Shown piece after piece: positions 18,634 through 59,692 of a DNA stretch of 64,000 nucleotides. The stretch covers positions 68,386,001 through 68,450,000 of the forward strand of contig OZ024742.1 of assembly GCA_964016885.1 (NCBI GenBank). The letters run 5' to 3'. Positions within the stretch are counted from its first letter, which is position 1. Every line of letters starts with the position of its first letter. The notes beneath the pieces are model-generated. The model did no database searches. It was not told where the DNA came from and saw only the letters and a program-made list of their open reading frames with translations. The translations under genes were made by a program, and so were the position numbers. This stretch comes from Eledone cirrhosa. Taxonomy: Eukaryota.

Positions 18634-19591
18634 ATTCAAATCTCTCTCAAATCATACCCTTCTATCTTAGGAAACGATATGGACATTGAACAATTTAGTC
18701 CTACATACCTATAAAAAGTTTAGATTTCCATTGCTGCGATCGTCTTTGATCATAATTGTGATAGATCAGAACTGAACTGAGGAAAAATAACAATAACACT
18801 AGAAACTAGTGCTACTACAATTAATAAAAATACCATTAGCCTTTAAGTGGTCACTCACCCTGGCAGAAACAACAGGTAAATCCTCCTATTAAATGAAAGA
18901 CATCGAGATGTTGGATTATGTGGTCTTAAACGTACACAGTCTGAAAAAGAAGCGATGTTGAGGACTGAAATAACTTTGATCATATATCAGCTCGTTCAAG
19001 GCTTTCCTGGGGTTAAATAACAGTATTAAAACGCAACACAATATTGACACATCTACCAAAAACAAATCCACTGCCCCTCACCACCAACACTCCCAAACAC
19101 ATACAAAAATAAAAAGAAGAAAGCAGTAGGGACTCACATAGGTAATGCAGTGTCAGAAAACTGAGATTAACTGAGATTATCCAGCCATTAGTAGATAAAA
19201 TCTCCTTCTATGAGCCTTTAAATTCTAAAAGCGAAAAGCGAATCAGATAACCCATATAATATAGTTTAATCTCCTAGTTTGGGCGAAAATAAAGACAATT
19301 CATTGTAGGAGTAAATCTAGTCTTTAAGGCAACTGATGGAAACAATTAGCTTGTTTCTGCCTATCTGAACCGCCTCAGAAAAGTATATTCAAATCATATA
19401 GATATATAGATAGATAGATAGAGAAGAAGTTGTGTACCAGTCGAGCTGGTAAGTTTTTGTCTTTTTACATATAAAAAACAAAAATTATTGTTTTAAAAAA
19501 AATACCACTGTATAGATTGACCCTCCGACTAAATTATCAGTGGGTGAGTCATTGAAATTTTCATAAAAATTTATAACAAATTGTTTTAAGT

Positions 19592-19803
19592 ATGAATGAT
19601 AACATTGAAGCGCTTCCAACCATAAGTGGAAATGGGAACGTTGAAATGAACGTCACTATGGCAACAGGTAGTAGTGACCGAGAAAAATCACACCAAAAAC
19701 GAAAGTATGGAAACACATACAGCACAAAAAATAATTGAACAAGAAAAAAACAACTTCACAAATGAACTCCACAACCACAAATCAAGCAATTGAGAACAAC
19801 AAA

Positions 19804-19834
<31 letters not shown>

Positions 19835-21492
19835 ACAGCAACCATAAAAAGTCTTTTGCCACAATAAGCAAAGAAACTTTTACAAATATTGATATTTCCA
19901 ATGCGAAGGAAATGATCAATGAAGGAAAAAAATATATTACCTTCGAGGAAAAAGGGGGATTTAAAATAACCTCTCCGCCACAAGTCCAGGCCTACACTAT
20001 ACGAAGGACTATGACTTTTCGCAGGATTTTGAACAAACAAAAAAAAAACGGCTTTCCTTACTCAAGGCGAAATTGAAATTGTCTTGAAAGAGGCAATGCC
20101 AGAAATACAATACATACAAAGGGCTAAACTGTATGGAAGCATTTCGGTGCTCTTCAAAAGTGAGGCCCTTACGAAAAAACACTCAGTGACCCCGGTCACC
20201 TCTACCACACACACCTTTCTCCCTACATACATGAGAAAAAGAACACAAAGAATAAACATCCCCAATATACCACCCAACATTAACATCTGGTGGATTCTGG
20301 CAGGGTTCTTGGAGGAAGATGAAGACACAATACTGTTGATTCAAAAATCCACAAGAAACACTTGGAATGGCACAAGCTTGAAAATGTTGGTCCAAATGAA
20401 ACCGGACAGAATTTCCAAGATATTAGAAAGGGTGCCAGTAGACGATACCAATTACATCCACATTTCGGCAGAGGGTGGGAGGCCACATTGTTTTAAATGC
20501 GCGAGCACATCGCATTTAAAGGCCTCCTGTCCCCTCTTACGAACAAACACCACCACCCCCCAAAAAATACTTTTACCAACACCAACTCCAAAACCACAAC
20601 AACAACACACAAAACAAGCAAACACTGTTCAACCACAAACAACAGAAAAAACACAAACAATTCCCCTGAAAAACCCACCCCATCCCACTCATCCAACACT
20701 ACCACAATCACACACACAAATACACCATCACCACACAACATACCTCTCCCACACGCTCCTGATGACGATTCATCACCAGACGAGGCTCTTCTCCATCCCC
20801 AAGTGACTAAAAACAAAACAAAAAAGAGACACCACAAAGCCACAAAAACAACAATCACCAACACAAACACACAACCACCAACACAAATAACAATACAAAC
20901 ACCACCACAATAACCCCCCCACCTACCAGAAAAACAAACACCAACACCACCCCAAACACAAATGCCCACCATAAAAAGAAACCTACAAAATGAACAACAA
21001 ACCCCCCGTCCCGAAAACAAAACCACGACATCACTCCAAACACAAACACCTACAACAAAACGAAAGCTCACACAAGAACAACAGACAAAAACCAACACAA
21101 CACAAGAACATTACACATACATAAACAGTAAAAACAAAACTTTAATGGAGGTCATCTCCCACGACCCTTCGGTGAAAACCGAAGGGAAAACTTTTTCGAA
21201 CTGTACAGGCAGACCTAATTTAAAGATGATTAGGGTCCCTACGGACACCTATAAGTCTTTAAAGGAAAACTTTCCTGAGGACGTGGGTAATCCTTGTGTT
21301 AAACCCATTAACCGCATCCTTTTAAAATGTTTCCCCACCCTCACCCCAGACACCCCCACCTCACTAGACACCCCATCCCCACCAAACATCTCCGTCCCCA
21401 CCCTGCCAGAAACCACCACCCTACCAAACACCCCTCCAACATCCCCATGGACATTGTGCAGCCTGGTCTCCAGGAAGCAAGGAGGTGAGTGA
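19592..21492 (+). pseudogene. Tx1 copy A ORF1 (RRM-like region, CCHC knuckle, Pro/Thr/Gln linker, conserved C-terminal block), frameshifted
   Basis: Pieces 19735-20076, 20084-20806 (CFKCASTSHLKASCP) and 20962-21492; ATG at 19592. Confidence 0.85.
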
Positions 21493-21529
21493 ATTCTTTC
21501 CTCTTCTTTTCTAACTCTTCCTCACCGAC

Positions 21530-23700
21530 ATGGCGAATGTAAGAGTCGGTTGTGTGAATGTGTGCGGCCTGGGGATGCCCTGGAAACAGGGCAAACTCCT
21601 AAACGACCTCAGGTCGCACAGTATGGATGTAATTGCCATCTGCGAGTCCAGGATCCACAACGAGCGACAGCTGGCTCCCATCTTCGATGACTATGAGATC
21701 TACGCATCTCTATGTCAGCCGGGGGGTGGGGGCGGGGTTGCCGTTTTGCTGAGGAAACACCTGGGCCTCGTAACACAGACGATACATCTGGACCCGGAGG
21801 GTCGACTGGTGGTCCTAGACGTTGACGGTAGTGAAGGTGGAGCCTTCAGGCTGGTGGCCGCACATTGCCCATCCGGGACTCCGCGGCAAGACTTCTTCAA
21901 GCGCCTAGAGACTTTTCTGGGAACGTCCCGCTCCTTGCTTTTAGTGGGGGACTGGAATGGAATCCTAGATGCACGCTTGGACTATGTGGGAGCATGTCCC
22001 GATAAAAGGGGTGTAACAGCCTCAAACAGTTAATCGGCCGATTTGACCTGGCCGATAGATATCGACTAAATTTTCCGACTGTGCCACTGTGACCGTGGAC
22101 TAATCGTAGCGGAACATCTAGATCGGACCTAGATAGGGTTCTAGTTAGAAAGAAGGATAGGGACATGTTAAGCTGTCCACAAATGTTCATGGTTGCCTAT
22201 TCAGATCACAAATTAATGACCTGCTTAGTCAACCTTGACAAAACCCATAGACAGGGACCCGACTACTGGAAGCTGAACTTGTCGTTACCGACATGCAAAG
22301 CCTACAGTAGACAGATTAGCACTTTAGTTAAGCAGCACTTGACGGGGGCCATTGTCAACAACAGATGGTGGTACTCTCTCAAGAGGGCAATTAGATTAGA
22401 CTCGATAGGTTTTAGTAAAGAATTAGCGTCAGATAGAAATATGACCGAAAAGGAACTGGTAGATAAAGTAGAAGAGGCACTTGGGAGTGGCAACGTAGCC
22501 AGCGAGCTAGCGGCGAGAATGGTATTGGACCAGTTCGTCGACGCAAATCAAGAAGGCTGCGTTGTCAGAAGCAAAATACGTGCTCTGGGAAACGAGGGAG
22601 CCAAAGCTGTTAGCTGGGCCCGAGTGACGGAGGCGAAAAGTGGCAACAAGTCAACGATTCGGTCTTTGAAGGACCAAGACGGACGCATGATACGTAAGCC
22701 AAAGCAGATGTGCACGGCCTTTCAGCGGCACTATTCTCAACTGTTCGGGCAGGGCGGCGCGCCGGGAGGGGCTATGGATTTCGGTTCATACCTCGAAGGC
22801 CTGCCGCGACTCTCGGACAGCGAGGCGAAGTTCTCTGAAAGGCCGATTTCAGCCGCTGAAATAGGGGACGCGCTGAGCCAATGCGGCAAACGCAAATCTC
22901 CAGGTCTCGACGGTCTACCCTACGAATTTTACGTAGCAATGCCGCACTTGTTCTCGGTTCTCCTGGAAGCGGTCTACTGCAACTGGCAGCAGAACGGGAG
23001 AATTCCCAGTTCTGTGACCAAGGGCGTAGTCACGCTAGTCAGGAAGGACGAGAATAAGGGGGATGACATAGGCAACTTCCGGCCAATAACTCTGCTAAAC
23101 ACAGATTTACAGATTTTGGCCAAGGTGTTGGCAAAGAGGCTGGCGCTTGTCGTCGAAAAGCTGGTGGGAGATGCGCAGACATGCGCAATCCCGACCAGGT
23201 CCATACACTACAACCTCCACCTCATGCGATACATCGTAGAGAGGGTCGGGTGTAAACCCGGATTCGCTGGGGTCCTGATCAACTTGGATCAGTCTAAGGC
23301 TTTCGATAGGGTTGACCATGGTTACCTGGATGCGGTGCTTGAGGCGGCAGGCTTCGGACCCATGTTCAGGGGCTGGATTGCTGCAATGCACAACAGCAAC
23401 ATCTGCTCAAGGGTCAAGGTGAACGGCTACCTCTCGGAGCCGTTCGATATCACGCGATCCATCCAACAGGGATGCTCTCTTTCTTCCCTTCTGTATGTAC
23501 TGACTCTCGAGCCACTACTGCGGAAGTTGGAGCTATTGCAGGGCATCCCTCTGGAACCGGGACTGCGGAAAGCGGCGACGGCCTACGCCGACAACGTGAC
23601 AGTAATGTTGTCGAGCACCTCGCAAATCGAGGAAGTTGGCACCCTACTGAAGGAATATGAAAGTTTCACAGGAGCGAAGCTGAACCGGGACAAGTCCATC
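21530..23700 (+). pseudogene. Tx1 copy A ORF2 (APE endonuclease plus RT), disrupted and truncated
   Basis: NVCGL, ICE, GDWN and SDH APE motifs; KSPGLDG, FRPITLLN, DQSKAFDRVDH, QGC.LS, YADN. Confidence 0.93.
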
Positions 23701-23771: not shown

Positions 23772-23985
23772 TTCTTTATTTACCATAAAGGCATAAAAAG
23801 AAGGGACAAATACAAAGGGGGAGTTTACATAAAACCGAGTAAAAAGGGTATAAAATGAAAATAATCGAAAACAACCTCAAAGGGGAGGGGACGTTATGGG
23901 GGTTGCACACACCCCCGATAAAGTGTGCAATCCTTTGCCCGGGGAGCACATGGAGAAGGTGCTCCCCTCTCCTTCACTTCTTTAC

Positions 23986-26900
23986 CTACAGGATGGTATA
24001 CAGAGAAGGCCCATTTACACGAGCCATTCTCGCCACTATCACCCACCTTTCATAAAACTGCCAGTGGCCAAGCACCTCTCTCTCCATTCTTATCCTTCTT
24101 CCGAAGTGATATCGGAAGAAGTAGACCAGACTATGGCCAGAGAGGAAGTTGCCTGACCTCAGACCTTTCAATCGTGTCCACCAAACAACCTCTTTCAACA
24201 TGGCTATTACGCACAGAAAGACCGCCTTTGCTTCCTTTGTGAAGAGGGGAGGCGGCTTGATTGTCATCACGGACTCGGCGGTCAATCGAATCGGCGCCAC
24301 CCGCGACAGCAGTCGTTCGGCGTAGCCCCACAGATCAGTCACGCCCGGACATTGCACCAATGCGTGCGCAACGGTTTCTTCGTGACGCACGCATCTAGGG
24401 CAAATCTTTTTCGAGGGATCCCTGCCCGGGCGCCCGTGTCTGTAGAGCTTTTCTCGAACGGGTATAGCCCCCCGGTAGCACTGCCAGGCTAGTGACTTCT
24501 GGAAGTTGTCCATTGGTCCCGGGCCGAAAGTCCTACCGAACAGGCTGGCCAGCTCGTCGTTTTCCATGTCCAGCGACTCTCCAAGGGTGTCATCGCCCCT
24601 GCTAGCCACCAGCCCTCTATAGAATGATGAGGTGGATTCTCCACCGATGGCCGGGTCCGCTTGCCAGAGAGCCCTGAGCGCCTGGGCACACTCAGTGTGC
24701 CAGTCTCCCAGTTTTCCGGATCTTTGCTTGACCCAGGACTGCAGCTCGGTGAGCGAGACGAGTCTCGGAAAGGCTCGTTTCACGAACGGAGCCCACACCG
24801 GTTGACCAGTGAGGAATACCTGTAGGTGCCGTAGCCTTAATGCGTGCCTACACATCATCAACCACGGCAACCCCAGCCCTCCTTTCGAAGGTTGTTGGCA
24901 GCAGATGGATCTGCTCACCATAGGAGGGCGCTTCTTCAAAGAAATTGAAAGAGCATGCGTTCCATGGTGGTGAGTGTTTCCTTAGGGCAAGGCACGACAG
25001 TCAGGCGGTAGTAAGTGACGGACGCTATGTAAATGTTCGCCACCTCCGCCCGACCTTTTAGGGACAGCTTACACTTGGCCCATTTCTGGGTTAGTGCAAA
25101 CACCTTGTTCGTAACCTCGCCCCAGTTCTTTTCCACCTGGAGGTCCGGTCCAAACCAGACCCCAGGCAACTTCACCGGGCCCTCCGTCCAGTGTCCGACG
25201 ACACCGTCGGGAGGCATCGGTCTGCCTCTCCACGTTCCGAGTTGCAGCCCGATGGATTTTTCCCGGTTCAGTTTCGCTCCTGACAACCTTTCGCATTCCT
25301 CCAGTAAGGTACCGATCGCCTCGATCTCCGAGTCGGTCGATACCATTACTGTTACGTCATCGGCGTAGGCCGACACCGCTTTGCTCAATCCTGGTTCCAG
25401 GGGGATACCTTGCAACAACTCCAACTTCCTCAGTAAAGGCTCGAGAGTCAATACGTACAGAAGGGAGGCGAGAGGGCACCCCTGTCGAATGGATCGTGTG
25501 ATTTCTAACGGCTTCGAAAGGTAGCCGTTCACCTTGATCCTAGAACAGATGTGGTTGCTATGTAAGGCAGTGATCCAGCCTCTGAAAACGGGACCGAACC
25601 CAACCGCCGCTAGCACCGCATCCAGGTAACCATGGTCGACCCTATCGAACGCCTTAGACTGATCCAAGTTGATCAGGGCCCCACCGAAGCCGGGTTTGTT
25701 GCCAACCCTCTCTATGATGTATCGCACGAGGTGGAGGTTGTCGTGAATGGACCTGGATGGGATAGCACATGTCTGCGCATCTCCCACCAGGCCACCCACG
25801 ACAAGCGCCAACCTCTTTGCTAACACCTTGGCCAATATCTTTAACTCTGTGTTTAGCAGGGTTATGGGCCGAAAATTATTTATACTATCCCCCTTGTTCT
25901 CGTCCTTCCTCACCAGCGAGTCTACGCCCTTGGCTACAGAACAAGGAATTCTCCCGTTCTGCTGCCAATTGCAGTAGACTGCTTCGAGGAGTTCGGAGAA
26001 GAAGACCGGCATTGCTAAATAAAGTTCGTAAGGTATACCATCGAGACCTGGAGATTTGCGTCTGCTGCATCGGCTCAGCTCATCCCCGATCTCATCAGCC
26101 GAGATTGGTCCCTCGCAGGACTCTGCCTCTTTGCTCGAGAGACGCGGTAGGCCGTCGAGGTATGGACCGAAATCCACGTCCCCGCCCGGACCCTCGCCTC
26201 CCCCGAACAATCGGGCAAAGTGCCTTTGAAAGGCCTCGCACATCTGCTTAGGCTCCCGGATCACCCGTCCATCCTCGTCTTGCAAAGACCGGATGGTGGA
26301 TCGATTTCCACTCTTAGCTTCTGTCACGCGGGCCCAGCCAACGGCTTTGGCCCCCTCATTACCTAGAGCACGTATTTTACTTCGAATGACGCAGCCTTCG
26401 TGCTTTGCATCGAAAAACTGGTTCAAGGCCGTCCTCGATGCCAGCACTCTGGCCACATCTTCGATCTTGATTGCCTCTTCTAATTTACCTGTTAATTCTT
26501 TCTCGTTCCTATTCCTATCGGCAGCTAACATCTTGCTATAACTTATTGATTCTGTTCTAATCTCTCTTTTAAGAGATGCCCACCATCGGTTGTTGACGAT
26601 TGCACCCGTCAACCTCTCCTTAACTAATCTGCTAATCCGGTTTCTGTAAGTCTCTTTTGCCGGTAAAGACAAATTAAGTTTCCAGTAACCGGGACCCTGT
26701 CAATGTGTTTTCTCGAGATTGACTACGCAGGTCACTAATTTGTGATCTGTATAGCCAACCGTGAGCATTTCTGGACAGCTTAATATGTCCCTATCCTTAC
26801 TTCTAACTAAGAATCTATCTAAGTACGATCTAGATTGACCACTATGGTTCGTCCAAGTCCAGGTTGGCACAGTTGGAAAATCTAGTCGATATCTATCGAC

Positions 26901-27422
26901 CAAGTTAAAACGGTCGAGTAACCCCTTGAGGCTGTTACACCCCGCTCTATTAGGACATGCTCCTGCATAGTCCCAACGTGCATCTAGGATGTCATTCCAA
27001 TCCCCCGCTAGAAGCAGGGAACGCGACGTTCCCAGAAAAGTCTCCAGACGCTGGAAGAAGTCGGGTCGTTCAGCTCCGAAAGGAGAGTAGACGGCGACCA
27101 GTCTCAAGGCCGCACCTTCACTACTGCCAACGTCTAGCACCAGCAAACGACCTTCCGAGTCCAAGTGAACAACCTGTACGGCGAGACCCAGGTGTTTTTC
27201 CAGCAGTACGACAACCCCACCCCCACCTCCAGGTTGACAGAGAGATGCATGCACCTCAAAGTCATCGAAGGTGGGGGCCAGCTGCCGCACGACGCTGATC
27301 CGAGTCTCATAGATAACCATTACATTTATACCACGTGACCTGAGGTCATTTAGAAGCTTTGCTTGCTTCCAAGTTGAGCCCAGGCCACGTGCATTCAAAC
27401 ATCCTACTCTTAACACATCCAT
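23986..27422 (-). pseudogene. Tx1 copy B ORF2 (APE-RT-CCHC); one nonsense codon (26700) and one frameshift (about 24937)
   Basis: ORF pieces 26700-27422, 24936-26672 (YADD) and 23986-24939 (CPRC...ETVAHALVQC). Confidence 0.95.
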
Positions 27423-29441
27423 GTGGGCGGCAAAGCCAAAGGAGAGTGTAGAGACCTACCTTTCTGCTTCCCAGGGTTCGGGTCGCACGACTTCCATGGG
27501 GTCGGGGGTGTTGGGTGAAGGGTGTCTTGTGGTGGTGTAGGGTCGTCAGTGTGTGGTGGGGTTGGGGTGTTTGGAGTTGTGTTGGGGAGGGGAAGGGGAG
27601 GGGGAAAGCTTTTTAGGAGGACGCGGTTTATGGGTTTGACAGAGGGTGGTCCTACGTCCTCCTTAAAATCCTTTTTTAGTTTTTGGTAGAGGTTCATTGG
27701 GATCTTTATTAATTTTAAATGTGGGTAGTTTTCTGAAGAAACAAAGTTTACCCCTTCGGTTTGTACCGAAGGGTTATTGTTTATGAGTTCATTTAATTTA
27801 TTATTGTTTCTGTTGTGTAAGTATAGTGTAATGTCTTTTTTTCGGATGGTGTGAGTGTTTCGAAGAGGGGAGGGGCAGGTTTGGTTTTGTTTGTTGCTGG
27901 AGGGGTGTTTTGTGTTTTGTTGGATTGTGTTGACATTTGGGTAGGGGTTGTTTGGCCTTGTGTGTTTTGCACATGTTTTCTTTTTTTCCTTTTAATCTGT
28001 CTGAAGGACTCCGTTTCTTCCTCCGAATTCGTTGGGTTATCTTCAGTGTTGGAGGGAAGAGGTATGTTTGCTGGTAATGTTTCCGTGTTGGTTTTCTTTG
28101 TGGGGGAGATGGATGTCACTATGTTAGACTGTGTTGTGTGTTGTGGCTGCGGTGGTTGTGTTGTTTTATTGAGTGAGGGGTTGGGTGGGACTGTGTTTTG
28201 TTTTTGGGTAATGTGTTGTGTCTGTTTGTGTTGTGGTGGTGGTGTAGTTTTACTGAGGGACAGGTTGGGTGGGACTGAGTTTTGTTTTTGGGTAATGTGT
28301 TGTGTCTGTTTGTGCTGTGGTGGTGGTGTAGTTTTACTGAGGGACGGGTTGGGTGGGACTGAGTTTTGTTGTTTGTTTATCTGTTGTGGTGGTGGTGAAG
28401 CTGGTGTTCGTAGCAGGGTTTTCTTCTTGTTGAGTTGGGGACAAGCCGCCTTCAGGTGCCCTCTGCCTACACAGATATCACAGGACGGCATTCTCCCCTC
28501 CACGCTAATGTTTATATACCCGTGGCCCTCTAATAGGATTCTGTCGGGTATTTGGGCAATGCGTTCAGGCTTCATTTGCACTACAAGTTCTATACCTGTT
28601 CCACTGAACGCATTGCCTGTGGTTTTCCCAATGGAAATCACGTTGTCATTCGCTGGATCGATGAAGCCAGCTATGAGCCAGCAGTAGTCCACATCTGGCA
28701 TCATCGCATCCAGCCATATGCGCTGAGTTCTTTTACCCATATAAGATGGATAAAAGGTAAAATTTGTCGAACGAATCGGCGACAAAGCATATTTTTTTGC
28801 CGCTGATTCGTTCTTCATAATAATCGCTAGGCTTCCATACAGTCTGTCTCTTCTTATGAAAGTGGTTTCATTAATTACTTCTGTAAGTACTGCTTTAATT
28901 TCTGCTTGTGTTGGTTGTTGAGGTTATTTTGAGATGTTGTTGATGGTACGGAAAACGACCGTCCGACTTTCAATATCTTTGGTGAGTTCTTGAGACATTT
29001 TTACCGATAAGGTTCCATTTTCCCCTTGAGTTATGTATTGTTTGGCGTTTTTTATTCTTTGTGCCACATCTGAAATATTTTCAGGTATATATGTTAAAGA
29101 TTTCTTTGTTGTTTGTGCAAATGAAATATTATTGGTGCTGACTTTGTCGTCTGCTTTGCTTTCTGTTATGATGTTGTTTTCAAATGTTATTTTTGTGTTT
29201 GTTGTGTCTTTGTTTGTGGTATTAATATTGTCATGCAATTCTTTCAAATTTTTTTTGTTGTTGGAATCAATCTCCAGATTTGTGTTTTCGTAATTTTTCT
29301 CCGCACATTCGTCTGTTTTTATTTTATTTTTCTTTCCTTCTCTATGACGTTAGTTGGGAAGGAAGCGGGGACTAAAGCGTGCGAGCTTACAACTCTTACC
29401 GCTGTCCTCCCACCACTATTTTCGTTAGCTTCGTTTAACAT
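27410..29441 (-). pseudogene. Tx1 copy B ORF1, frameshifted; contains an 84-bp tandem repeat (about 3 copies, 28130-28380)
   Basis: ATG at 29441 (MLNEANENSGGRTAVR); CDICVGRGHLKAACP knuckle; 28-aa repeat QKQNSVPPNxSLSKTTPPPQHKQTQHIT. Confidence 0.85.
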
Positions 29442-29677
29442 TTCTACCAGACGATTGAAATTTTATGCCACAAAATTTTTAAAAACAGGTTTTTCACCCC
29501 TGGGAGGGGCGAAGATGAGCTGACCCACCGCCTGACAGTTCAGACGGGGGGTCAAGCTACACAATAGTATCAAAATTAAAATTGAACTTACAAAATTTCC
29601 GCAATAAATTGGAACAAAACTTCTGCGCGAAGTGAATTACGTCTACGCTGTAGAACAGACGACAGCTAGATTTATAT

Positions 29678-42410: not shown

Positions 42411-45400
42411 TGTTTCTTTATTAGCCACAGGGGCACAAAAGAAGGGGACAAATACAAAGGGGGAAGTTTACATACAATAAAAACGTGTAAAATGTTATCA
42501 CAAATGTAATTTAAAAAGTTAGTCGATTTTCCCCAATAGAGAGAGACAGTTTATATGGGTAACACATACCCCCGAAAAAATGTGCAACCCTCATCTCCAG
42601 GAGTACGAAGAGTTTGTATTCCTTTTCTCTCCTCCTCCTTTTCCTCAACCTACAGACTGTTATAGAGAGAAGGCCCATTGACTCGGGCCATTCTCGCCAC
42701 TTTCACCAACCTTTCATAAAACTTGCTGGGGTACAGCACCTCTCTCTCCATCCTGATTCTTTTTCCAAAGTGGTATTTGAAAAAAAGAATCAGTTGTTGG
42801 CCGGAGAGAAAGGTGTCTGACCTCAGCCCTTTCAACCTTGTCCACCATACAACCCCTTTCGCCATAGCTATCACACAAAGGAAAACCGCCTCTCCTTCGT
42901 TTTTGAAGGAGGGTGGCGGTTTGATCATGACAATGGACTCGGTGGTCAACCGGATTGGTCCCACCCGCGACAATAGTCGTTCTACATAGCCCCACAGGTC
43001 AGTGACGCCCGGTCAGTGTATGAATGCGTGCGCGACGGTTTCTTCGTCTCGCACGCACCTCGGACAGATCTTTTTTGCAGGGTCCCTGCCCGGGCACCCA
43101 TGTCTGTAGAGCTTGTCTCGAACTGGTTGAGCTCCTCGGTAGCACTGCCAGGCCAGGAACTTTTGGAAGTTGTCCATCGGTTCCGGGCGGAAGGTCCTAC
43201 CGAACAGACAGGCCAGTTCATCTTCCTCTACGCCTAGAGTTTCACCGAGCGCGTCGTCGCACTTGCTGCGGATCAACCCTCTATAGAATGACGAAGTGGA
43301 GTCTCCACTGATCGGCGGGTCCGCCTGCCAGAGGGCTGTGAGCGCCTGAGCACATTCGATGTGCCAGTCGCCCATTTTCCTCGGTCTTTGCTTGACCCAG
43401 GACTGCAGCTCGGTCAGCGAGACGAGTCGTGGGAAGGCTCGCCTCACGAACGGGGCCCACACCGGTTGTCCGGTGAGGAATACGTAGAGATGCCGCAGCC
43501 TGAGCGCGTGTTTGCGCATCGTCAACCACGGCATCCCCAGCCCTCCGTTAGAAGGGTGTTGGCAGCAGATGGATCTTCTCACCAAAGGAGCCCGCCTCTT
43601 CCAAAGGAATTGGAAGAGCGCGCGCTCCATTTTGGCGAGCGTTTTGGCTGGACAAGGCACGACGGTCAAGCGGTCGTAGATGGCGGACGCTATAAAAGTG
43701 TTCGCCACCTCCGCTCGATCTTTCAAGGATAGTTTGCACTCGGCCCACTTCTGGGTGAGTGCAAACACCTTGGCCGTCACTTCGTTCCAGTTCTTCTCCA
43801 CCTGGAGGTCCGGACCAAACCAGACCCGAGCAGCTTTACCGGTCCTTCCGTCCAGCGTCCGACGACGCCATCGGAAGGCATCGGTTTGCCTCTCCACGAT
43901 CCGAGTTGCAAACCGATGGACTTCTCCCGGTTCAGCTTCGCTCCTGTGAAACTTTCGTATTCCTTCAGTAAGGTGCCGACTTCCTCGATTTGCGAGGTGC
44001 TCGACACCATTACTGTCCGTCGTCGGCGTTGGCCGACGCCGCTTTCCGCAGTCCCGGTTCCAGAGGGATGCCCTGCAATAGCTCCAACTTCCGCAGTAGT
44101 GGCTCGAGAGTCAGTACGTACAGAAGGGAGGAAAGAGAGAGCATCCCTGTCGAATGGATCGCGTAATATGGAACGGCTCCGAGAGGTAGCCGTTCACCTT
44201 GACCCTTGAGCAGATGTTGCTGTTGTGCATTGCAGCAATCCAGCCCCTGAACACGGGTCCGAAGCCTGCCACCTTGAGCACCGCATCCAGGTAACGATGG
44301 TCAACCCTATCGAAAGCCTTAGACTGATCCAAGTTGATCAGGACCCCACCGAAGCCGGGTTTACTCCCTACCCTCTCTATGATGTATCGCATGAGGTGGA
44401 GGTTGTCGTGTATGGACCTGGTCGGGATTGCGCATATTTGCGGTTCTCCCACCAGGTTCTCGACGATAAGCGCCAGCCTCTTTGCCAACACCTTGGCCAA
44501 AATCTGTAACTCTGTGTTTAGCAGAGTTATGGGCCGGAAGTTGCCTATGTCATCCCCCTTATACTCGTCCTTCCTGATTAGTGTGACCACGCCCCCGGTT
44601 ACAGAACTGGGAATTCTCCCGTTCTGTTGCCAGTTGCAGTAGACCGCTTCCAGGAGACCGGAGAATAAGTCCGGCATTGCTACGTAAAATTCGTAGGGTT
44701 GACCGTCGAGACCTGGAGATTTGCGTTTGCCGCATTGGCTCAGCGCGTCCCCTATCTCAGCGGCTGAAATCAGCCTTTCGCAGAACTTTGCCTCGCTGTC
44801 TGAGAGTCGCGGTAGGCCGTCGAGGTATGGAGCGAAATCCATAGCCCCTCCCGGCGCGCCGCCCCTCCCGAACAGTTGAGCAAAGTGCCGCTGAAAGGCC
44901 GCACACATCTGCTTCGGCTCACGTATCGCGCATCCGTTTTGGTCCTTCAAAGACCGAATCGTGGACTTGTTGCCACTTTTCGCCTCCGTCACTCGGGCCC
45001 AGCTAACAGCTTTGGCTCCCTCGTTTCCCAGAGCACGTATTTTGCTTCTGACAACGCACCCCTCGTGATTTGCGTCGAAGAACTGGTCCAAGGCCGTTCT
45101 CGTTGCTAGCTCGCTGGCTACGTTGCCACTTCTAATTGCCTCTTCTACTTTATCTACCAGTTCCTTCTCGGTTCTATTTCTATCTAACGCTAATTATTTA
45201 CTAAAACCTATCGAGTCTAATCTAACTGCCCTCTTGAGAGAGTACCACCATCTGTTGTTGACAATTGCCCCTGTCAAGTGCTGTTTAACTAAAGTGCTAA
45301 TCTGTCTACTGTAGGCTTTGCTTGTCGGTAATGACAAGTTCAGCTTCCAGTAGCCGGGTCCTTGTCTATGGGTTCTATCAAGGTTGGCCATGCAGGTCAC

Positions 45401-47331
45401 TAGTTTGTGATCTGAATAGGCAACCATGAACATTTGTGGACAGCTTAACATGTCCCTATCCTTATTTCTAACTAGAACCCTATCTAGGTATGATCTAGAT
45501 GTTCCGCTACGATTACTCGTTCGTGATGGTCTCCATTAGTGTTTTGTTTTCAGTGTTTATGTAAGTGTAAGTGTAATTTTCTTGTGTTGTGTTTGTTTTT
45601 GTCTGTAGTTCTTGTGTGTGCTTTCGTTTTGTTGTAGGTATTTTGTTTTCAGGAGGTGGGGGTTTTGTTTGTGATGTTTTTGTTGTTTGTGTTGGTGGTT
45701 GTATGTTCGTGGTAGTGTTTGCTGGTTTTTTGCTTTTGTGATGTCTTTTCTTTCTTTTCGAGCGATGGGGTTCTCCCTCGTTTTCACTGGGTGATGGCGA
45801 GATAGCCTCATCTGTTGTATCGTCTGTGTGATTGGGGAGGAGTATGTCTTGGGGAGCTGTTGTGTCTGTATGTGATTTTGCAGTGGTTTTAGGTGGAGTG
45901 GGGTTGGGTGGGACTGTGTTTGTTGTGGTTATTTTTGTGTGTTAGTGTTGTTGTGGTGAGGTTGGTGGTTGTGTTGTTTTGATGGGTGTCGGCAGAAGAG
46001 CCTTTTTTTTATTCATTAATTTAGGACAGGAAGCCCTCAGGTGACCCCTGCTAAAGAAATGGTAACATGAAGGCCGCCTACCCTCAACCGAAAAGTTTAT
46101 GTAGGTGAGTCCGTCCAGGAGTACACGTTGTGGGATCATAGCTATTCGCTCTGGGCTCATTTGCACCAGAACTTCAATGCTAGTCCCATTGAATACATCT
46201 CTGGGGGACTTTCCTACTGACAGTATTCTGTCTTCATCAAAATTGATGAAGCCGCACAGTATCCAACATATGTTCACCTTTGGTGTGACACTCGTGATTT
46301 TGATCTTTTGTGTCCTTTTTGCCATGTATGTAGGGAAAAGGGTGTACAGGTTGGATACAATTGGCGACACAGAGTAATTTTGGGCCGTCAATTGATCCTT
46401 CATGAGTACCGAAATACTCCCAAAAAGTTTGCTTCTTTGAATGAATACAATATCATTCATTGAATTTTTGAAAACCAGTCAATTTCTTTCTGTGACAATT
46501 GGACTGGTTTTCGGGTAGAATTGGAAACTGTCCTAAAAACTATCGTTTTGAGAGCAGTTTCCTTGCGAATTTCTACCGGAGAATTGATGCTGATAGCACC
46601 ATTTTTTTCGAAAGTGACATATCTCCTAGCGTCCTTTAAAAGTTGTTCGGCATTTGTTATGTCGAGATATATCAGTTCCTCCTTTTTTTGAACTGTCTGT
46701 ACAAAGGAGATATTTGGTTTCTTTGTGGAATTATCCGTGTTGGTGGTGTATTCATTATTGTTGTTATTGTTGTTGTTATTCTTGTTGTCACCGATGTTGA
46801 TATTATTCGTATTTTCCTTGGTGTTGTTGTTGTCTTTGATGCTGCTGTTATTGGTGTTGGCTTTATTTTTTTCTTTGTTGTTGTTAACATTGTTGTTTTT
46901 ATCATCATTATTGGTGTTGCTGTTATTTTTGTTGTCATTGAACTGTTTGGTGTCATTTGTGTTGTTTGGATATGAATTTGTTTTTGCATTTTCATTTCGT
47001 CTTTCCATCTCTATAGTATCTATTGAGAAGGAAAGGGGAGAAGACGATGTTGACTGCGAGCTTTGTAGTCTTACCGCCTCTCCACCACCATTATCGTTGG
47101 ACGCAGCGTTCATAACGTAATCAAACTTTTACAATATTTTTTCCAAGATTCGATGGAGAAAAAATTTTTCAAACTAATATTTCGCCCCTGTAGGGGCGAA
47201 AATGAGTTGACCCACCACCTGAAGGTCCAGATGGGGAGTCAAGTTACACAATAATATAAAATTTAACTGAAAACTCACGTTTTTTTCTTACATAAATTAA
47301 CGGAAACTTCTCCGCGAAGTTACACACGTCT
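42411..47331 (-). mobile_element. Tx1-clade LINE copy C; both ends present, internal deletion of about 0.93 kb
   Basis: ORF1 from ATG 47113 (CYHFFSRGHLRASCP); ORF1 end fused to the end of APE at about 45515; RT and CCHC pieces to the stop at 42650; (TATC)n on both sides. Confidence 0.94.
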
Positions 47332-47342
47332 GATAGAGAGAG

Positions 47343-47419
<77 letters not shown>
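47332..47419. repeat. (GATA)n spacer between C and D
   Basis: Directly visible. Confidence 0.97.
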
Positions 47420-50400
47420 TATTTCTTTATTTGCCACTAGGGCACAAGAGAAAGGGACAAATACACAGGGGGAGTTTACATAAATGCGAGTAAAGAAAAA
47501 AAGGAATAACAATAATAATATAATAATAGAAAGTCCTCAAAAGGGAGGGGGCGTGTTGGGGATTGCACATACCCCCGAAAAGTGTGCAACCCTTTTCGCG
47601 GGGGAAGCCCAGAGAGGAGGCGCTCCCCCTTTCCTCTTCACTTCTTCACCTACAGAACAATGTAGAGAGAAGGCCCATTTACACGAGCCATTCTCGCTTC
47701 TTTCACCCACCTTTCATAAAACTGTCTGGAGCCAAGTACTTCTCTCTCCATCCTGATCTTTCTTCCGAAGTGGTATCGGAAGAAGTAAACCAGGTGTTGG
47801 CCGGAGGGAAAGTCACCCGACCTCAGACCTTTCAGGTGCGTCCACCACACAACCTCTTTCATCATGGCTATTACGCACAGAAAGATCGCCTCTGCTTCAT
47901 TTCTGAAGGGAGGAGGCGGCTTGATGTTCACCACAGACTCGGCGACCAATCGAATCGGCGCCACACGCGACAGCAGTCGTTCGACGTAGCCCCACAGATC
48001 GGCAACGCCCGGACAGTGTACTAGTGCGTGCGCAACGGTTTCCTCGTCGCGCACGCATCTGGGACAGATCTTTTTCGCGGGATCCCTGCCCGGGCGCCCG
48101 TGTCTGTAGAACTTTTCTCGAACGGGCAGAGCCCCCCGGTAACACTGCCAGGCTAGGGACCTTTGGAAGTTGTCCATGGGTCCCGGGCCGAAAGTTCTAC
48201 CGAACAGGCTGGCCAGTTCGTCCTGCTCCATGCCTAGCGACTCTCCAAGGGTGTCGTCGCCCCTGCTAGCCACCAGCCCTCTATAGAATGTCGAGGTGGA
48301 TTCTCCACTGATAGTCGGGTCCGCTTGCCAGAGAGCCGTGAGCGCCTGGGTACACTCGGTGTGCCAGTTGCCCAGTTTTCTCGGTCTTTGCTTCACCCAG
48401 GACTGCAGCTCGGTGAGCGAGACGAGCTGTGGGAAGGCTCGCCTCACAAACGGGGCCCACACCGGCTGACCGGTGAGGAATACCTGTAGATGCCGTAGCC
48501 TCAATGCGTCCCTACGCATCAACAGCCACGGCATACCCAGCCCTCCTTTCGAAGGGTGCTGGCAGCAGATGGATCTCCTCACCATGGGAGGCCGCTTCTT
48601 CCAGAGGAACTGGAAGAGCATGCGCTCCATGATGGTGAGCGTTTCCTTAGGGCAAGGCACGACGGTCAGGCGGTAGTAGATGACGGACGCTATGTAAGCG
48701 TTCGCCACCTCCTCCCGACCTTTCAGTAATAGTTTGCACTTGGCCCACTTCTGGGTCAGCGCAAACACCCTGCTCGTCACCTCACCCCAATTCTTCTCCA
48801 CCTGGAGGTCCGGTCCGAACCAGACCCCGAGCAGCTTCACCGGGCCCTCCGTCCACCGCCCGACGACACCGTCTAACGGCATCGGTTTGCCCCTCCACGT
48901 TCCGAGTTGCAAACCGACTGACTTGTCCCGGTTCAGCCTAGCCCCCGTCAGCCTTTCGTATTCCTCCAGTAGGGTGGCGATCGCCCCGATTTCCGAGGCG
49001 TCCGCCACCATTACTGTTACGTCGTCGGCATAGGCCGAGACCGCTTTGTGCAATCCCGATTCCAGGGGTATGCCCCGCAGCAACTCCAACTTCCGCAGCA
49101 GTGGCTCGAAATCCAATACGTACAGAAAGGAGGAGAGGGGGCACCCCTGCCTGATGGACCGGGTGATTTGAAACGGCTCCGAGAGGTAGCCGTTTACTTT
49201 AACCCTAGAGCAGACATTGCCACTGTGCATGGCAGAAATCCAGCCCCTGAAAACGGGTCCGAAGCCCGCCGCCGCTAGCACCGCATCCAGGTAACCATGG
49301 TCGACCCTATCGAACGCCTTAGATTGATCCAAGTTGATCAGGGCCCCACCAAAGCCGGGTTCGTTCCCAACCCTCTCTACGATGTATCGCATGAGGTGGA
49401 GGTTGTCGTGAATGGACCTGGACGGGATAGCGCATGTCTGCGCGTCTCCCACCAAGCCACCCACCACAAGCGCCAACCTCTTCGCCAACACCTTGGCCAA
49501 AATCTGTAACTCTGCATTCAGCAGAGTTATGGGCCTAAAGTTACTTAAGTCGTCCCCCTTGCTCTCGTCCTTCCTCACTAGCGTGACTACGCCCTTGGTC
49601 ACAGAACAGGGAATTCTCCCGTTCTGTTGCCAGTTGCAATAGACAGCCTCGAGGAGTTCTCTAAATAAAGTTCGTATGATAGACCATTGAGACCCGGAGA
49701 TTTGCGTCTGCTGCATTGGCTGAGCGCTTACTCGATTTCAGTGGCTGTGATTGGCCTTTCGCAGCACTCCGCTTCGCCGCTCGAAAGACGTGGTAGACCG
49801 TCGATGTATGGACCGAAGTCCACATCCCCGTCCGGCCCCCCGCCCCCTCCGAACAGTCGAGCAAAGTGCCTTTGAAAGGCCTCGCACATCCGCTCAGGTT
49901 CAAGGATCACCCGTCCATCCTGGTCTCGCAAAGACCGAATGGTGGATTTAATCCCACTCTTGGCTTCTGTCACGCGGGCCCAGCTAACAGCTTTGGTCCC
50001 CTCGTTTCCTAAAGCACGTATTTTACTTCGGACAACGCAGCCTTCGTGCTTCGCGTCAAAGAACTGGCTCAACGCCGTTCTCGACGCTAACACTCTGGCC
50101 ACGTCTCCGCTCCTAATCGCCTCTTCTAGTTTATCTGTTAACTCCCTTTCCCTCCTATTTCTATTCGCCGCTAGTTCCTTACTGTAACCTATCGAACTTA
50201 CTCTAATCTCTCTCTTTAGAGATACCCACCACCTGCTGTTGACGATCGCTCCCGTCAACCGCATCTTAACTAAGCTACTAATCCGGTTCCTGTAAGCTTC
50301 CTTTGCCGGCAAGGACAAGTTCATCTTCCAGTAACCGGGACCCTGTCTATGCGTTCTATCAAGGTTGACCACGCATGTCACTAATTTGTGATCTGAATAG

Positions 50401-53278
50401 CCAACGATGAGCAATCTGGACAACTAAATACGTCCCTATCCTTACTCCTAACCAAAAACCTATCTAGGTACGATCTAGATTGACCACTGCGGTTTGCCCA
50501 GGTCCAGGTTGGCACAGTTGGAAAATCTAGTCGAAATCTATCGACCAGGTCGAATCGATCGAGTAACCCCTTGAGGCTGCTACACGCCCCTCTATTGGGA
50601 CATGCCCCTGCATAGTCCCAACGCGCATCTAGGATTCCATTCCAGTCCCCCACTAAAAGCAGGGAACGCGACGTTCCTACAAAAGTCTCCAGACGCTGGA
50701 AGAAGTCGGCTCTTTCAGCCCCGAAGGGGGCATAAAGACCGACCAGTCTGAAAGCCCCGCCTTCACCGCCTCCGACGTCCAGCACCAGTAATCGACCCCC
50801 CGGGTCCGAGTGAACAATCTGTACGTCGAGAGCCAGACGTTTATCCAGCAGTATGGCAACCCCACCCCCGCCTCCGGGTTGACAGAGAGATGCGTGCATC
50901 TCAAAGTCATCGAAGGCGGGAGCCAGCTGTCGCACGCTGCTGATCCGACTCTCGCAAACAACCATCACATCTATACTTCGTGACCTGAGGTCACTTAGAA
51001 GCTTTGCTTGCTTCCAAGCTGAGCCCAGGCCACGCGCATTCAAACAGCCAACTCTCAATTGATCTATTTTGGTGTTGAAAGTGAAGAAAGAAACCTACCT
51101 CTCCGGGTTGTGTAATTTCCATGGGGTCGGGTGTGTTGGGTGGAGGGATGTTTTGTGGTGGTGTGGGGGTATCCGAGTGTGGTGGGTTGGGGTATTTGGA
51201 GTTGTGTCAGGGATAGGGGAGGTTATGGGGAAATTTTCAAGAGGACGCGATTTAACGGTTTTAAACAGGGGGGGGGCTCACGTCCTGTTTAAATTGTTCT
51301 TTTAAGGAACGATAAAGGTCCAGAGGGACCTTTATCATTTTTAAATGGGTGAAGTTCTCTGTTGAGATAAAGTTTGGCCCTTCGGTCTGCACAAAAGGGC
51401 TATTGTTTATTAATTTAAACAGTTTTTTGTTTTCTTTATTTATATATGTGTATTGGAAAGTCTTTTTTTGTGATGCTGTCAATGTTTCGAAGGGTGGGAG
51501 GCGCAGATTTATTTTTGTTTGTCGAGGGTGGGGTGTTTTTGATTGGAGTTGGTGTTTGTGTGTGGGTTATTTGTTGTTGTGGTGTGCTGGGTGTGTGCTT
51601 TCGTTTTTTTCTTTTAACTTGTCTGAAGGCTTCTCCTCCTTCTTCTTCAGAAGTTGGGGGAAACTCTTCAGCGCTAGGTGGGAGGGACGTGGTGTCTGGT
51701 TGTTTTTTTTGCAGGAGGGGTAGATTTGTTGCTGTTTTTTTTATTATTTGTTTGGAATGTGTTTTGTGGTGGTGGTGGTGATGTTTGTGTCGTGCTTGTG
51801 GTTGGTGATGGTGGTGGTGGTGATGTTTGTGTTGTGGTTGGTGATGGTGGTGGTGATTTTTGTGTCGTGCTTGTGTTTGGTGCTGGTGGTGGTGATGTTT
51901 GTGTTGTGCTTGTGGTTGGTGGTGTCTGTATTTTGTTTGCTGTGTGTGGTACTAGTGTATTTTTGGAGGTGGGTGGTGTTGGTGTACTGTTTGTGGTGGG
52001 TGTGGGCAATAGTCCTTTTTGGGGGATACGATTCGGGCAGTTAGCCTTAACGTGTCCCCTTTCCGTGCATGAATAGCATGCTGGTCTTCTCCCCTCTACA
52101 ATTATATATATTGGGGTGAGGTCATCCAGCCAGATGCGATCCGGGATTTGCGCTATTCTTTCGGGCCTCATTTGGACTAGTAGGTCGAGGCCCATTCCCA
52201 GGAATGCATCTCCAGATGCCTTCCCCATTGACAGCACTGTGTCCTCGCCCATGTTTATGAAGCCAGCAATAGCCCACCAGAAGTCCATTGTGGGCAGCAT
52301 TGTCTATATTTTGACTCTCTGAGTTCTTCTACCCATGTAGGAGGGATAGAAACTGTATGTTGTTGATGAGAGTGGGCTTAGGGAAAGCCTCTGTGCTGTT
52401 TCCTTGTCTTTTGTTAAACCAGAAATGCTGCCATAGAGTCGGTCCTTTCGTATGAAGAGAATATTCTTCAAAAGTCTTTTAGGACCAACTCTATCTCCAT
52501 TTGGCTGGGCTGTGCTGGCTTTCTCGTGTGGTTTAGGACTGTTCTAAACAGAACAGTGTTTTCTAGTCTCGTTTTCTTGAATTCTGGGGGGGAGGGGATT
52601 AGTGGAAAATATTCCGTTCTCCCCCAAGACTATGTGCTTTTTTGCTTCTGCCAGTTTCTCTCTGGCGGCAGTTAAGTCAATAGGTGTATATATTATAGAT
52701 TTTTTTGTTGTCTGTGCGAAAGTTGTTTTTGTTGTGTTTGTGTTATTTATGTTGGTGTATTCGTTCACATTTTTTTTTCTTTGGGGTTAGACTCCATTTT
52801 TTCAAAATATTTACTTATATTTTCATTATCCGAGAGACTTGTAGTCACAGCTACTACTTCTCTTTCACCTTTGCTGGTGGGCGTGGCGCCGTGAAAAGTC
52901 GAAACGTCATCCATTCATTTTGGCAATTTCTCCGAGTTAATTTTTTTCACATTTTTTTCATTAGGGTTAGGTTCCATTTTTTCAATGTTTCTAATAATCA
53001 TTATTCTTTCAGTGGGGTGGCTTGTTGCCTCAGCTACCCGCTCTCCTTCAGTTTGTTTAGTGGGCGTGTCATCGTTACCTGTGGTAATGGCTTCCATTAC
53101 CACTAGCGTAGAGACAATTGCAAGATTTTTAGGATGAAAAATTTCACCCCAAAAGGGGTGAAATAAATTAACCCTAATGTCCGAAGACCCAGGCAAGGAT
53201 ACAGACAAACACTTACTGTTAACACGTAATATCTCCAATATTCACGGAGCCGATGTGAAGCACGTCTATGCCATCCGG
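47420..53278 (-). mobile_element. Tx1-clade LINE copy D, full length
   Basis: 5' UTR, ORF1 from ATG 53097 (CYSCTERGHVKANCP), ORF2, 3' UTR ending AATAAAGAAA-(TATC)n. Confidence 0.95.
47650..51067 (-). pseudogene. Tx1 copy D ORF2 (APE-RT-CCHC); frameshifts near 50410 and 49660-49730; start codon reads ATA
   Basis: ORF pieces 50381-51058, 49728-50423 and 47650-49716 with GDWN, YLDRFL, SDH, YADD, CPRC..H...C. Confidence 0.94.

Positions 53279-53279
<1 letters not shown>

Positions 53280-53359
<80 letters not shown>
53280..53359. repeat. (GATA)n spacer between D and E
   Basis: Directly visible. Confidence 0.97.
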
Positions 53360-53360
<1 letters not shown>

Positions 53361-53777
53361 ATTTCTTTATTAGCCACAAGGGCACAAAAGAAGGGGACAA
53401 ATACAAATGAGGAGTTTACATACAGGTATATGAAAATAAAACTATTAATAAAATAACAAATAACAATTGAAATCCCCAATAGGGGGGAGGCGTTACACAG
53501 GGGTTGTACACACCCCGAAAAAATGTACAACCCTCATCTCCAGGAGCACCACCAAGAGTGAGTACTCCCTTCCTCTCTTCCTCTTTTTCCTCAACCTACA
53601 GGCTTATAGAGAGAGAAGGCCCAACCACTCGGGCCATCTTTGCCATATTCACCCACATTTTATAAAATTTGCTGGGGTACAGCACCTCTCTCTCCATCCT
53701 GATTCTTCTTCCAAAATGATATTTGAAAAAACGAATCAGTTGCTCGCCGGAGAGAAAGGTGTCTGACCTCAACCCTT
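53360..53777 (-). mobile_element. Tx1-clade LINE copy E, severely 5'-truncated
   Basis: Only the last about 180 nt of ORF2 plus the 3' UTR remain; closest to copy C. Confidence 0.9.
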
Positions 53778-54429
53778 GTTGGATGGAGGAAGAAACAAAT
53801 AGAGATTAAAACAGATCTTTGCATTTGTTGAAATGGGAATGGTATATCGGAAGTAACACACGTGGTATAAATAACGGAAGTGACATATGTTTAAATAACG
53901 AATGCTGTACACATAACCACAAAGGCACATGAATAGTAAAAGTTCAGAATGACTGAAAAACAAAGGAAAAGATATTTTGATTGAATCGTGACAAAATATG
54001 GCTCTGTTAATTGCTTCCTTTTCTAAATTCTTCACTAAAAGTTTCTCTTACTCGAGATTTCAATCTCTTCACATCACTAAAATGATCTTATTATATAGCA
54101 TTCGGTATTTTATATGTTCTCTGTGTCCATTATCTTGTAGACATATATAAAAATGGCTGGTATAAAGTGATGGAAAATATCATTTAAGACGCGGTTTCTG
54201 TTTACGCACAGAGCTAATCACATCACTTGTATATATTAATAATCTAGAAAGCCATAAATATCACAGCTTTCAATTTACCTTCACACTGTTCGTATATAAA
54301 TACTTAAATGCACATATACATACCCATATTTACATACAAATATTTACATACATCTAAACACACACACTGACACACACACACACACACACATACACACGTG
54401 CACATACAAACATACAAACATACATACAT

Positions 54430-57938: not shown

Positions 57939-57951
57939 CACATACATACAT

Positions 57952-58510: not shown

Positions 58511-58567
58511 TACATACATACATACATACATACATACATACATACATACATACATACATACATACAT

Positions 58568-58822
58568 GGTGTTTTCCTTCTCCTAGAATTCTGCCTTGAC
58601 AAAGGCTAAGGGGTCATCTCTCCCGGTGATTTTGGATGGCCATTGACTCTTAAGAGCTCCTTTGCCCTTTGACAGGTTTTATTTTTAGTCCTGCAGGATG
58701 TCCAAAGTCACCCTCCTCACCAAGAAACCTTGGTGGGGTTGCCAGTTTAGTCGCCAACGACCCGACCATGAGACAGGTTGTACTGGGATACATGTTACCA
58801 GTAGCACCAACTGGTGACCTGA
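58568..58822 (-). mobile_element. RTE-derived element, 5' UTR part joined directly to the tail
   Basis: Sense ...TAGGAGAAGGAAAACACC(ATGT)n; extends about 50 nt further 5' than the previous copy. Confidence 0.8.
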
Positions 58823-58892
58823 CATAAACATATATATATATATATACATACATACATACATACATACATACATACATACATACATACATACA

Positions 58893-58923
<31 letters not shown>

Positions 58924-59661: not shown

Positions 59662-59692
<31 letters not shown>

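Follow-up and report, generated by a model that had tools for sequence, protein, structure and literature searches.

Candidate splice signals around both open reading frames of Tx1-type LINEs in Eledone cirrhosa

LINEs are regarded as units without introns to which splicing does harm, and to our knowledge it is not settled how bicistronic LINEs produce ORF1p in far greater amounts than ORF2p. A 64-kb, microsatellite-rich stretch of the Eledone cirrhosa genome (hereafter the window, taken at its full length) carries four Tx1-type LINEs with a splice donor-like motif near their 5' ends, and raises the question of whether this motif opens an intron and why such a segment would be kept in elements that are copied from RNA. 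The original prediction was of a short 5'-UTR intron that encloses conserved hairpins, retained because the enclosed structure is a template-selection signal or an internal promoter element.

Tx1-type elements and their microsatellite target

Self-comparison and Pfam searches resolve the window into four degraded Tx1-type LINEs, A on the plus strand and B, C and D on the minus strand, together with a 3' fragment, E; stops and frameshifts disable all of these copies. Two are full-length: B (23772..29670, minus strand), which is flanked by (TATC)n arrays, and D (47420..53278, minus strand). Element A (19421..23700, plus strand) has a shortened 5' end that is without the downstream promoter element (DPE) and terminates within the reverse transcriptase (RT), C (42411..47331, minus strand) is missing ~930 nt, endonuclease included, and E (53360..53777, minus strand) is a 3' fragment of a related family. 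The ORF2 regions of the window copies are 76-93% identical. By blastn, the 5' UTRs of B and C align (75%) and those of A and B align over 50 nt, while no other pair does so, B and D included. In B, ORF1 carries a CCHC knuckle (CxxC..H..C) and ORF2 is of the EN-RT-zf type, with Pfam matches to the APE endonuclease (PF03372), the RT (PF00078) and the C-terminal zinc domain (PF13966).

The Xenopus TX1 protein matches the window RT at 235 bits (33% identity over 98% of the query) versus 118 bits for human L1 ORF2p, which places the RT nearer to Tx1 than to mammalian L1. The B RT region has its closest named relatives in Argonauta hians (65%) and Acanthosepion pharaonis (45%). A quick RT tree, with one named Tx1 reference and without a mammalian L1 row, leaves the backbone open. 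Of eight viral loci, two were used, and only as outgroup rows. Instead of the GIY-YIG endonuclease and single ORF of Penelope-like elements (PLEs), an APE endonuclease and two ORFs are found; the window elements may work like Penelope and are not members of the PLE group.

B, C, D and E each have (TATC)n next to their 3' end, which points, on five copies only, to a target-site preference and agrees with the microsatellite targeting known in Tx1 (PMC4494074; this and the other papers cited are drawn on from the available parts of their text). Kibi and Koshi, microsatellite-targeting members of the Tx1 clade, share with the window elements two ORFs, an EN-RT-zf ORF2 and a microsatellite preference, whereas their targets are (TC)n, (TTC)n, (TTCC)n and (TTTC)n rather than (TATC)n, and splice signals go unmentioned in the available part of their description (PMC4494074). 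The literature searched, including the available parts of PMC13282606 and PMC5753468, reports no (TATC)n LINE target, and Repbase could already describe these families.

The arrangement of the copies has several further features. Over 42411-53777, E, D and C are stacked head-to-tail with (TATC)n between each, as repeated insertion into one microsatellite would leave them. The polarity of A toward (TATC)n is inverted relative to B-E, and its end within the RT has a few bases of microhomology to the repeat; A may be a twin-priming or inversion product without the 3' part. Element C looks chimeric (region 45517-45670), with a B-like UTR and an ORF1 63% identical to A, followed by sequence 82-93% identical to A; its ~930-nt deletion was considered as a splice product and rejected, since the junction is not GT-AG. 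In D, a degenerate ~120-nt duplication lies at the ORF1 start (52764-53068), the second unit of which has its own ATG. A different RT element with a nuclease-like C-terminus (PF00078; weak PF13588) occupies 54428-63800 on the plus strand in several rearranged partial copies. In the 3' UTR, a stem-loop is conserved at 42557-42590 and 53501-53533, with homologues visible in B and D, and the final 60 nt, which end in AATAAA, are conserved as well; stem-loop and last 60 nt are likely the RT recognition region.

Promoter motif, donor, hairpins and acceptor of the 5' UTR

The AGACGT of B, C and D matches the Drosophila-derived consensus of the LINE DPE (RGWCGTKY, +29 to +36; PMC1636488, PMC2377424; also PMC4748587). 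The DPE-like motif lies at 29637..29644 in B (minus strand, ~+27 from the element start, 6/8 to the consensus), at 47324-47331 in C and at 53260-53267 in D (both minus strand and 8/8). Family contigs of B extend to 29667-29669, and the donor would stand at ~+80 if B starts at its element edge. At 29641, T replaces the C of the motif in 77-83% of the B-family depth. To judge from its sequence and position, the DPE-like motif would set the transcription start. As AGACGT lies upstream of the donor, the core promoter would fall in exon 1, outside the proposed intron, contrary to the suggestion that a promoter element accounts for retention of the segment.

The donor sites originally assigned to A (19449), B (29591) and D (53216) are borne out, as is the GTGAGT of C (47278), whereas the GTAAGA offered as a second choice in C (47291) is a non-homologous site. 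In B, the UTR donor (D1) is a GTAAGT at 29586..29591 (minus strand), with A or G at +3 in the family. GTRAGT stands 53, 53 and 51 nt behind the common AGACGT in B, C and D, and the A donor is at +29 of the 5'-shortened element. The pattern AGACGT-N44-48-GTRAGT, which was designed post hoc, has three matches in the window (B, C and D) versus 0.02 expected, and 0 of 100 shuffles reach three. GTRAGT itself has a chance of 0.04-0.12 in the first 100 nt of each UTR and of 0.08-0.19 per UTR; the A-D UTRs are of common ancestry, and the donors are thus not four independent draws. Over the ~21 kb of A-D, the sense strand holds seven GTRAGT in total, four of which are D1 and one the donor at the ORF1 stop codon (D2). 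A and D have ~12 further bases in common behind the donor.

Contigs of the B family show how the donor varies. The sole donor variant among those listed is A/G at +3, at roughly 50% (X1) and 37% (X2) of depth, X1 and X2 being one sample, possibly the source of the window itself, and ten further variants standing beyond those listed; X4, without cover above ~29505, and X5, which covers 9 of 30 bins, were left out. The C donor has G at +3, the base that varies in the B family, and the splice consensus tolerates A or G at this position. With a conserved GTRAGT, the UTR segment has what would be expected of a U2-type 5' splice site. Contigs that cross the B donor unspliced are found at high depth, and over 29000-29672 the contigs of four of the five public runs listed have no joints at the 4% listing threshold, contigs showing presence only. 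The donors of A-D show no conserved sequestration. Judged from the sequence, the 5'-UTR donor motif is real and conserved, and it is much better conserved than any acceptor.

Two hairpins sit wholly within the candidate intron segment. Hairpin 1 of B (29521..29555, minus strand) has homologues in C (47207-47242) and A (19517-19551, plus strand) and is weak in D, and hairpin 2 of B (29492..29513, minus strand) has homologues in C (47181-47200) and D (53143-53162) and was looked for in A and not found. Conserved hairpins in all four 5' ends, as first described, are therefore only partly recovered: the UTRs fold stably (z-scores of -5.3 for B, -4.6 for C, -3.8 for D and -2.3 for A), whereas the full module is not present in all. 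In A, B and C, 91% of the hairpin 1 cells are paired, versus 30-49% in slid controls. Covariation in hairpin 1 is not significant (two pairs changed on both sides, 110 of 500 shuffles as good, three sequences), and the four module variants listed for the B family all keep the fold (one in a loop, one in a 1x1 mismatch and two exchanges between G-U and Watson-Crick pairs). The G-U and compensatory nature of the hairpin changes points to an RNA structure rather than a DNA element. Rfam has no match in the window at gathering score and none up to E 5 in 29400-29672; a reading as an SL RNA-like sequence or ribozyme was dropped, as no Rfam family matches and the Sm-like run of B is, by eye, unshared.

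Between the donor and the ORF1 ATG, the candidate UTR intron measures 148 nt in B (29444..29591, minus strand), 142 nt in A (19449..19590, plus strand; strong donor, AAG acceptor), 153 nt in C (47126..47278, minus strand; GTGAGT donor, poor AAG acceptor) and 114 nt in D (53103..53216, minus strand; TAG acceptor and the best pyrimidine tract). The candidate acceptor A1 and the ORF1 ATG of B occupy 29439..29446 (minus strand), where the acceptor triplet is TAG in the window copy versus CAG at 98-100% of contig depth in the family. An AG does end just before the ORF1 ATG as predicted (1, 2, 12 and 5 nt upstream in A, B, C and D, respectively), but this much is expected by chance (0.40-0.60). An AG no more than 12 nt from the ATG after at least 40 AG-free nt occurs in all four elements, with a chance of 0.05-0.11 per element and a count of 260 in 2618 control windows, and in 0 of 22 distant Tx1 loci. 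The 40-nt threshold was set post hoc, and the acceptor, ORF2-end and donor-spacing statistics are all post hoc and represent two to three independent lineages.

The acceptor is YAG in two of the four elements (B and D) and AAG in A and C, pyrimidines make up only 0.29-0.65 of the sequence before the AG, and the YTNAY branch consensus occurs in two of four (A and D). The evidence for a candidate acceptor is moderate and weaker than that for the donor; the proposed short 5'-UTR intron thus keeps its conserved donor motif and the hairpins behind it, whereas its acceptor is weak in triplet (YAG 2/4) and tract. At 29446-29450, the B family reads a branch-point-like CTRAC (A or G at R) just before the candidate AG, closer to it than animal branch sites usually lie.

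A second pair of signals around ORF2

The donor D2 overlaps the ORF1 stop codon at 27454..27459 in B (minus strand) and at 21485..21490 in A (plus strand), where third-position codon variation fixes the frame and thereby sets the cut at phase 2 in both. In D (51093..51098, minus strand), the copy is 14 nt shorter upstream of D2, which is therefore out of phase there. All three copies that retain this region (A, B and D) have the donor on the ORF1 stop, and a donor-like motif lies near the ORF1 stop in only 3 of 32 distant loci.

At the end of ORF2, an AG preceded by a pyrimidine tract forms the candidate acceptor A2, which lies at the ORF2 stop codon in B (23986..24011, minus strand; same site at 47650 in D) and 7 nt upstream of the ORF2 stop in C (42657..42682, minus strand; same site at 53603 in E). 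Since the 3' end of A is missing, C and E are used in place of it. The ORF2 stop supplies the first AG in B and D, where phase-2 joining would give Arg-stop and leave the C-terminus as in unspliced ORF1. For C and E, the first AG comes 7 nt earlier and joining would give Ser-Leu-stop, whereas the later AG would give no stop. The predicted phase-2 join would close ORF1 within two codons in all four 3' ends, by two routes; under synonymous resampling, the nominal null for such a stop-restoring join is 0.007, 0.045, 0.0004 and 0.040 (two lineages). For B, the predicted doubly spliced RNA would consist of 79 + 1984 + 214 nt.

At the ORF2 end, 4 of 5 synonymous sites are conserved, which is no excess over the baseline (148 of 250); the Pro-Ser/Thr-Leu codons found there are partly fixed by the protein, and related proteins have similar terminal residues. 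No YTNAY branch site is apparent before A2 when the sequence is read by eye, and the AG-free zones of C and E are short (23 nt). The distant Tx1 loci examined are without the ORF2-spanning signature, and a search for the ORF2-end pattern elsewhere gave two matches in prokaryote genomes and two in viral contigs, none of the four encoding a relative.

Pairing is possible between the inter-ORF spacer, which is rich in pyrimidines, and the purine-rich beginning of the 3' UTR (21491-21526 with 42645-42690; 51057-51092 with 47610-47670). The latter is the best within-element partner for D and for A versus C and ranks ninth for B; the pairing is not stronger for cognate pairs, and 120, 39 and 29 of 1000 shuffles are as good. 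When metagenome contigs were scanned for ORF1, 0 of 245 stretches were confirmed, an ORF1 protein search found nothing, and a search of representative proteins gave two matches, one of which is a distant full ORF1. The contig that carries P0241, a complete but distant ORF1 homologue of 603 aa, is only 2209 nt long, near the predicted size of an ORF1-only RNA; this is a lead only.

Two RNAs from one promoter, and the rival readings

Known retroelements offer partial parallels. Penelope of Drosophila virilis has a TATA-less internal promoter with the DPE RGACGTGY followed by a conserved donor, and its 75-bp 5' intron (46 bp from the start) is removed from most transcripts and yet kept genomically (PMC2377424). 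The window elements likewise have a DPE-like motif, then a conserved donor and a short 5' segment kept in genomic copies. By contrast, Penelope is a PLE with a GIY-YIG nuclease, one ORF and demonstrated splicing, whereas the elements here are two-ORF, APE-type LINEs in which splicing is predicted only and the segment is 114-153 nt with two hairpins rather than 75 bp (PMC2377424). Human L1 also has a conserved promoter-proximal donor in its 5' UTR (G98U99, ~100 nt in), with SpIREs as rare dead-end copies (~2%); there, the donor is attributed to a RUNX3 site, the acceptors lie hundreds of bases off and splicing is harmful, whereas the junction predicted here would leave the DPE and the ORF1 start intact (PMC5860796). 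In copia (gag RNA) and Ty1/copia (shGAG RNA), splicing produces a subgenomic RNA that encodes only the structural protein, the Drosophila copia intron, known here through the citing paper, spans all of pol, and U1 at the Ty1/copia donor also blocks early termination (PMC5580714). The predicted ORF2-spanning part would similarly give a structural-protein-only RNA, although copia is an LTR element with one fused ORF, whereas ORF1 here has its own stop and the predicted intron runs from the ORF1 stop to the ORF2 stop (PMC5580714). By analogy, the UTR part may work like the DPE-plus-intron of Penelope or the conserved donor of L1, the elements belonging to neither group. The literature searched, with subscription papers and Repbase mostly outside it, contains no report of these signals in Tx1 nor of an ORF2-spanning LINE intron, which, as coverage is incomplete, is weak evidence of novelty.

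The reading preferred here is a facultative UTR intron within a scheme of spliced ORF1 mRNA and unspliced genomic RNA; it is proposed tentatively from the signals described above, its probability falling a little short of one half. One internal Pol II promoter and the host spliceosome would generate the two RNAs. Transcription would begin at the microsatellite junction, with the DPE at ~+27 to +34, and the 5' splice site at ~+80, to judge from its conserved motif, probably binds U1. The 114-153-nt hairpin segment may be spliced in part of the transcripts to the AG just before the ORF1 ATG, a step for and against which the prospects are evenly balanced. A second splice, itself somewhat doubtful, would join the ORF1 stop codon to the end of ORF2, removing ORF2, and yield a 2.3-kb ORF1-only mRNA with a nearly unchanged C-terminus. 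The unspliced RNA would be the source of the ORF2 protein and the copied template. The most likely role of the hairpins would be in keeping or handling this unspliced RNA, through export, binding by ORF1p or repression of splicing; once they are removed, scanning would reach the ORF1 ATG more easily. Daughter copies without the donor would be poorly expressed dead ends, and the segment would thereby be kept in families. The fullest form of the proposal, in which the whole of ORF2 is a spliceosomal intron and a doubly spliced ~2.3-kb ORF1-only mRNA would stand beside a hairpin-marked unspliced genomic RNA, is more doubtful than not.

Several results count for this two-RNA scheme: the fixed DPE-donor spacing, although blastn fails to align the B and D UTRs; the AG-free run before the ATG in 4/4 elements versus 0/22 distant loci; the CAG acceptor of the B family; the fold-keeping family variants of the hairpin module; D2 on the ORF1 stop in 3/3 copies versus 3/32 distant loci; the stop-restoring A2 join in all four 3' ends; and the precedents of Penelope and copia. 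Counted against it are the AAG acceptors of A and C, the weak tracts and the branch consensus in only two of four; the ORF2-end synonymous sites at baseline, the partly protein-fixed codons and the lack of YTNAY before A2; the non-significant covariation, the out-of-phase D2 of D and the distant loci without the ORF2-spanning signature; and the majority variant at 29641 in the DPE-like motif.

A promoter-proximal donor is also seen in a set of 80 metagenome loci at 29-43% identity, where certain Tx1-like elements open with the first 11-17 nt of what we take to be the U1 snRNA. Several loci of the group end in the rest of the U1 gene; the group thus targets U1 genes, and insertion there defines +1. 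The headed loci are L005:71, L013:43, L018:134, L020:490, L023:107, L025:40, L028:41, L036:2146, L062:3608, L080:230, L008:103 and L075:1000 (n = 12); U1 downstream halves or intact genes (L012, L027, L031, L038, L039 and L070), the 3' matches of L013, L018 and L020, the first match of L075 and a match inside ORF2 (L080) were left out. In 7 of the 12, G|GTRAG occurs at +71 to +80, its G, G, T, A and G columns invariant amid divergent flanks, and a second, partly complementary motif lies ~60 nt beyond. The five of these seven loci whose ATG was scored have no AG within 38 nt of it, the last AG being 38-95 nt before it. Partnerless donors close to the promoter would, on this evidence, be recurrent in Tx1; the motif pairs with the element's own U1 head in 6/7 and the seven are one related group, so that the comparison is confounded. 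No U1-targeting Tx1 group is reported among the literature matches listed. Four other loci (L024, L048, L049 and L050) start with the U2 snRNA 5' end, as expected for Keno-type Tx1.

The main rival to the two-RNA scheme is a U1-binding site without splicing, which is somewhat unlikely. The donor would then be an orphan, rarely spliced, that sustains Pol II elongation across an A-rich 6-kb unit without introns, by telescripting or escape from Restrictor, with D2 serving ORF2 alike and the AGs incidental. A 5' splice site can act in this way, as it protects from Restrictor with no splicing needed (PMC12211998), and in the Evade element it is U1 that prevents termination from occurring too early (PMC5580714). 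Donor conservation that far exceeds that of any acceptor, a first 2.2 kb with 38-40% A and 1-9 polyadenylation hexamers per element, and the partnerless G|GTRAG of the U1-headed loci are all consistent with such a site. The AG-free run that ends at the ATG in 4/4 elements and the stop-restoring acceptor at the ORF2 end are left unexplained by it, however, and the motif of the distant group, given its pairing with the U1-derived head, may be kept for another reason. Chance in AT-rich DNA combined with common ancestry would account for the donor still less readily and is scarcely credible: the copies are only four and related, the per-UTR chance of GTRAGT is appreciable and an AG near the ATG is common, but the motif holds a fixed position in otherwise unalignable UTRs, varies in keeping with the consensus and, of its few sense-strand occurrences, falls mostly at D1 and once at D2.

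The remaining readings assign the segment a role in the template or the promoter. The conserved 5' splice-site motif enclosing RNA hairpins is supported by the sequence; that its retention implies a template-selection signal does not follow, since selection among daughter copies suffices to keep the segment. An efficiently spliced intron with hairpins as a packaging or template-selection signal, such that only unspliced RNA is reverse-transcribed, is quite improbable. The hairpins are confined to the segment and behave as RNA structure, the CCHC knuckle of ORF1 could bind them, and the contigs that cross the donor at high depth are unspliced. Yet one or other hairpin is missing or weak in A and D, the 3' UTR has a separate stem-loop, LINEs usually recognise their template at the 3' end or through cis preference, and retention is explained without such a signal. 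In this regard, intron-less human L1 copies are dead ends (PMC5860796), and deletion of the Penelope 5' intron abolishes reporter protein (PMC2377424). It is very improbable that GTRAGT instead belongs to a site in the internal promoter at which a transcription factor binds the DNA, as the conserved donor of human L1 lies within a RUNX3 site; mutation of that donor lowers RNA about five-fold (PMC5860796). The fixed spacing to the DPE-like motif and the bases common to A and D behind the donor would suit a factor site, whereas the variation follows the splice consensus at +3, both within the B family and between families, and a further instance of the motif stands 2 kb from the promoter, at the ORF1 stop.

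The junctions predicted by the two-RNA scheme can be checked at once in existing RNA-seq. If true, the scheme would mean that a non-LTR element sets its ORF1:ORF2 ratio in the manner of a retrovirus or copia, and it could be one way in which ORF1-only non-autonomous elements arise. If the donor alone is functional, it would show that intron-free retrotransposons retain a U1 site close to the promoter, and the conserved donor in human L1 could then be interpreted in another way. Octopus vulgaris has 13 recently active L1-Tx1 families (PMC13282606); thus, if the signals are used, a young and abundant group of cephalopod LINEs would regulate itself by host splicing.
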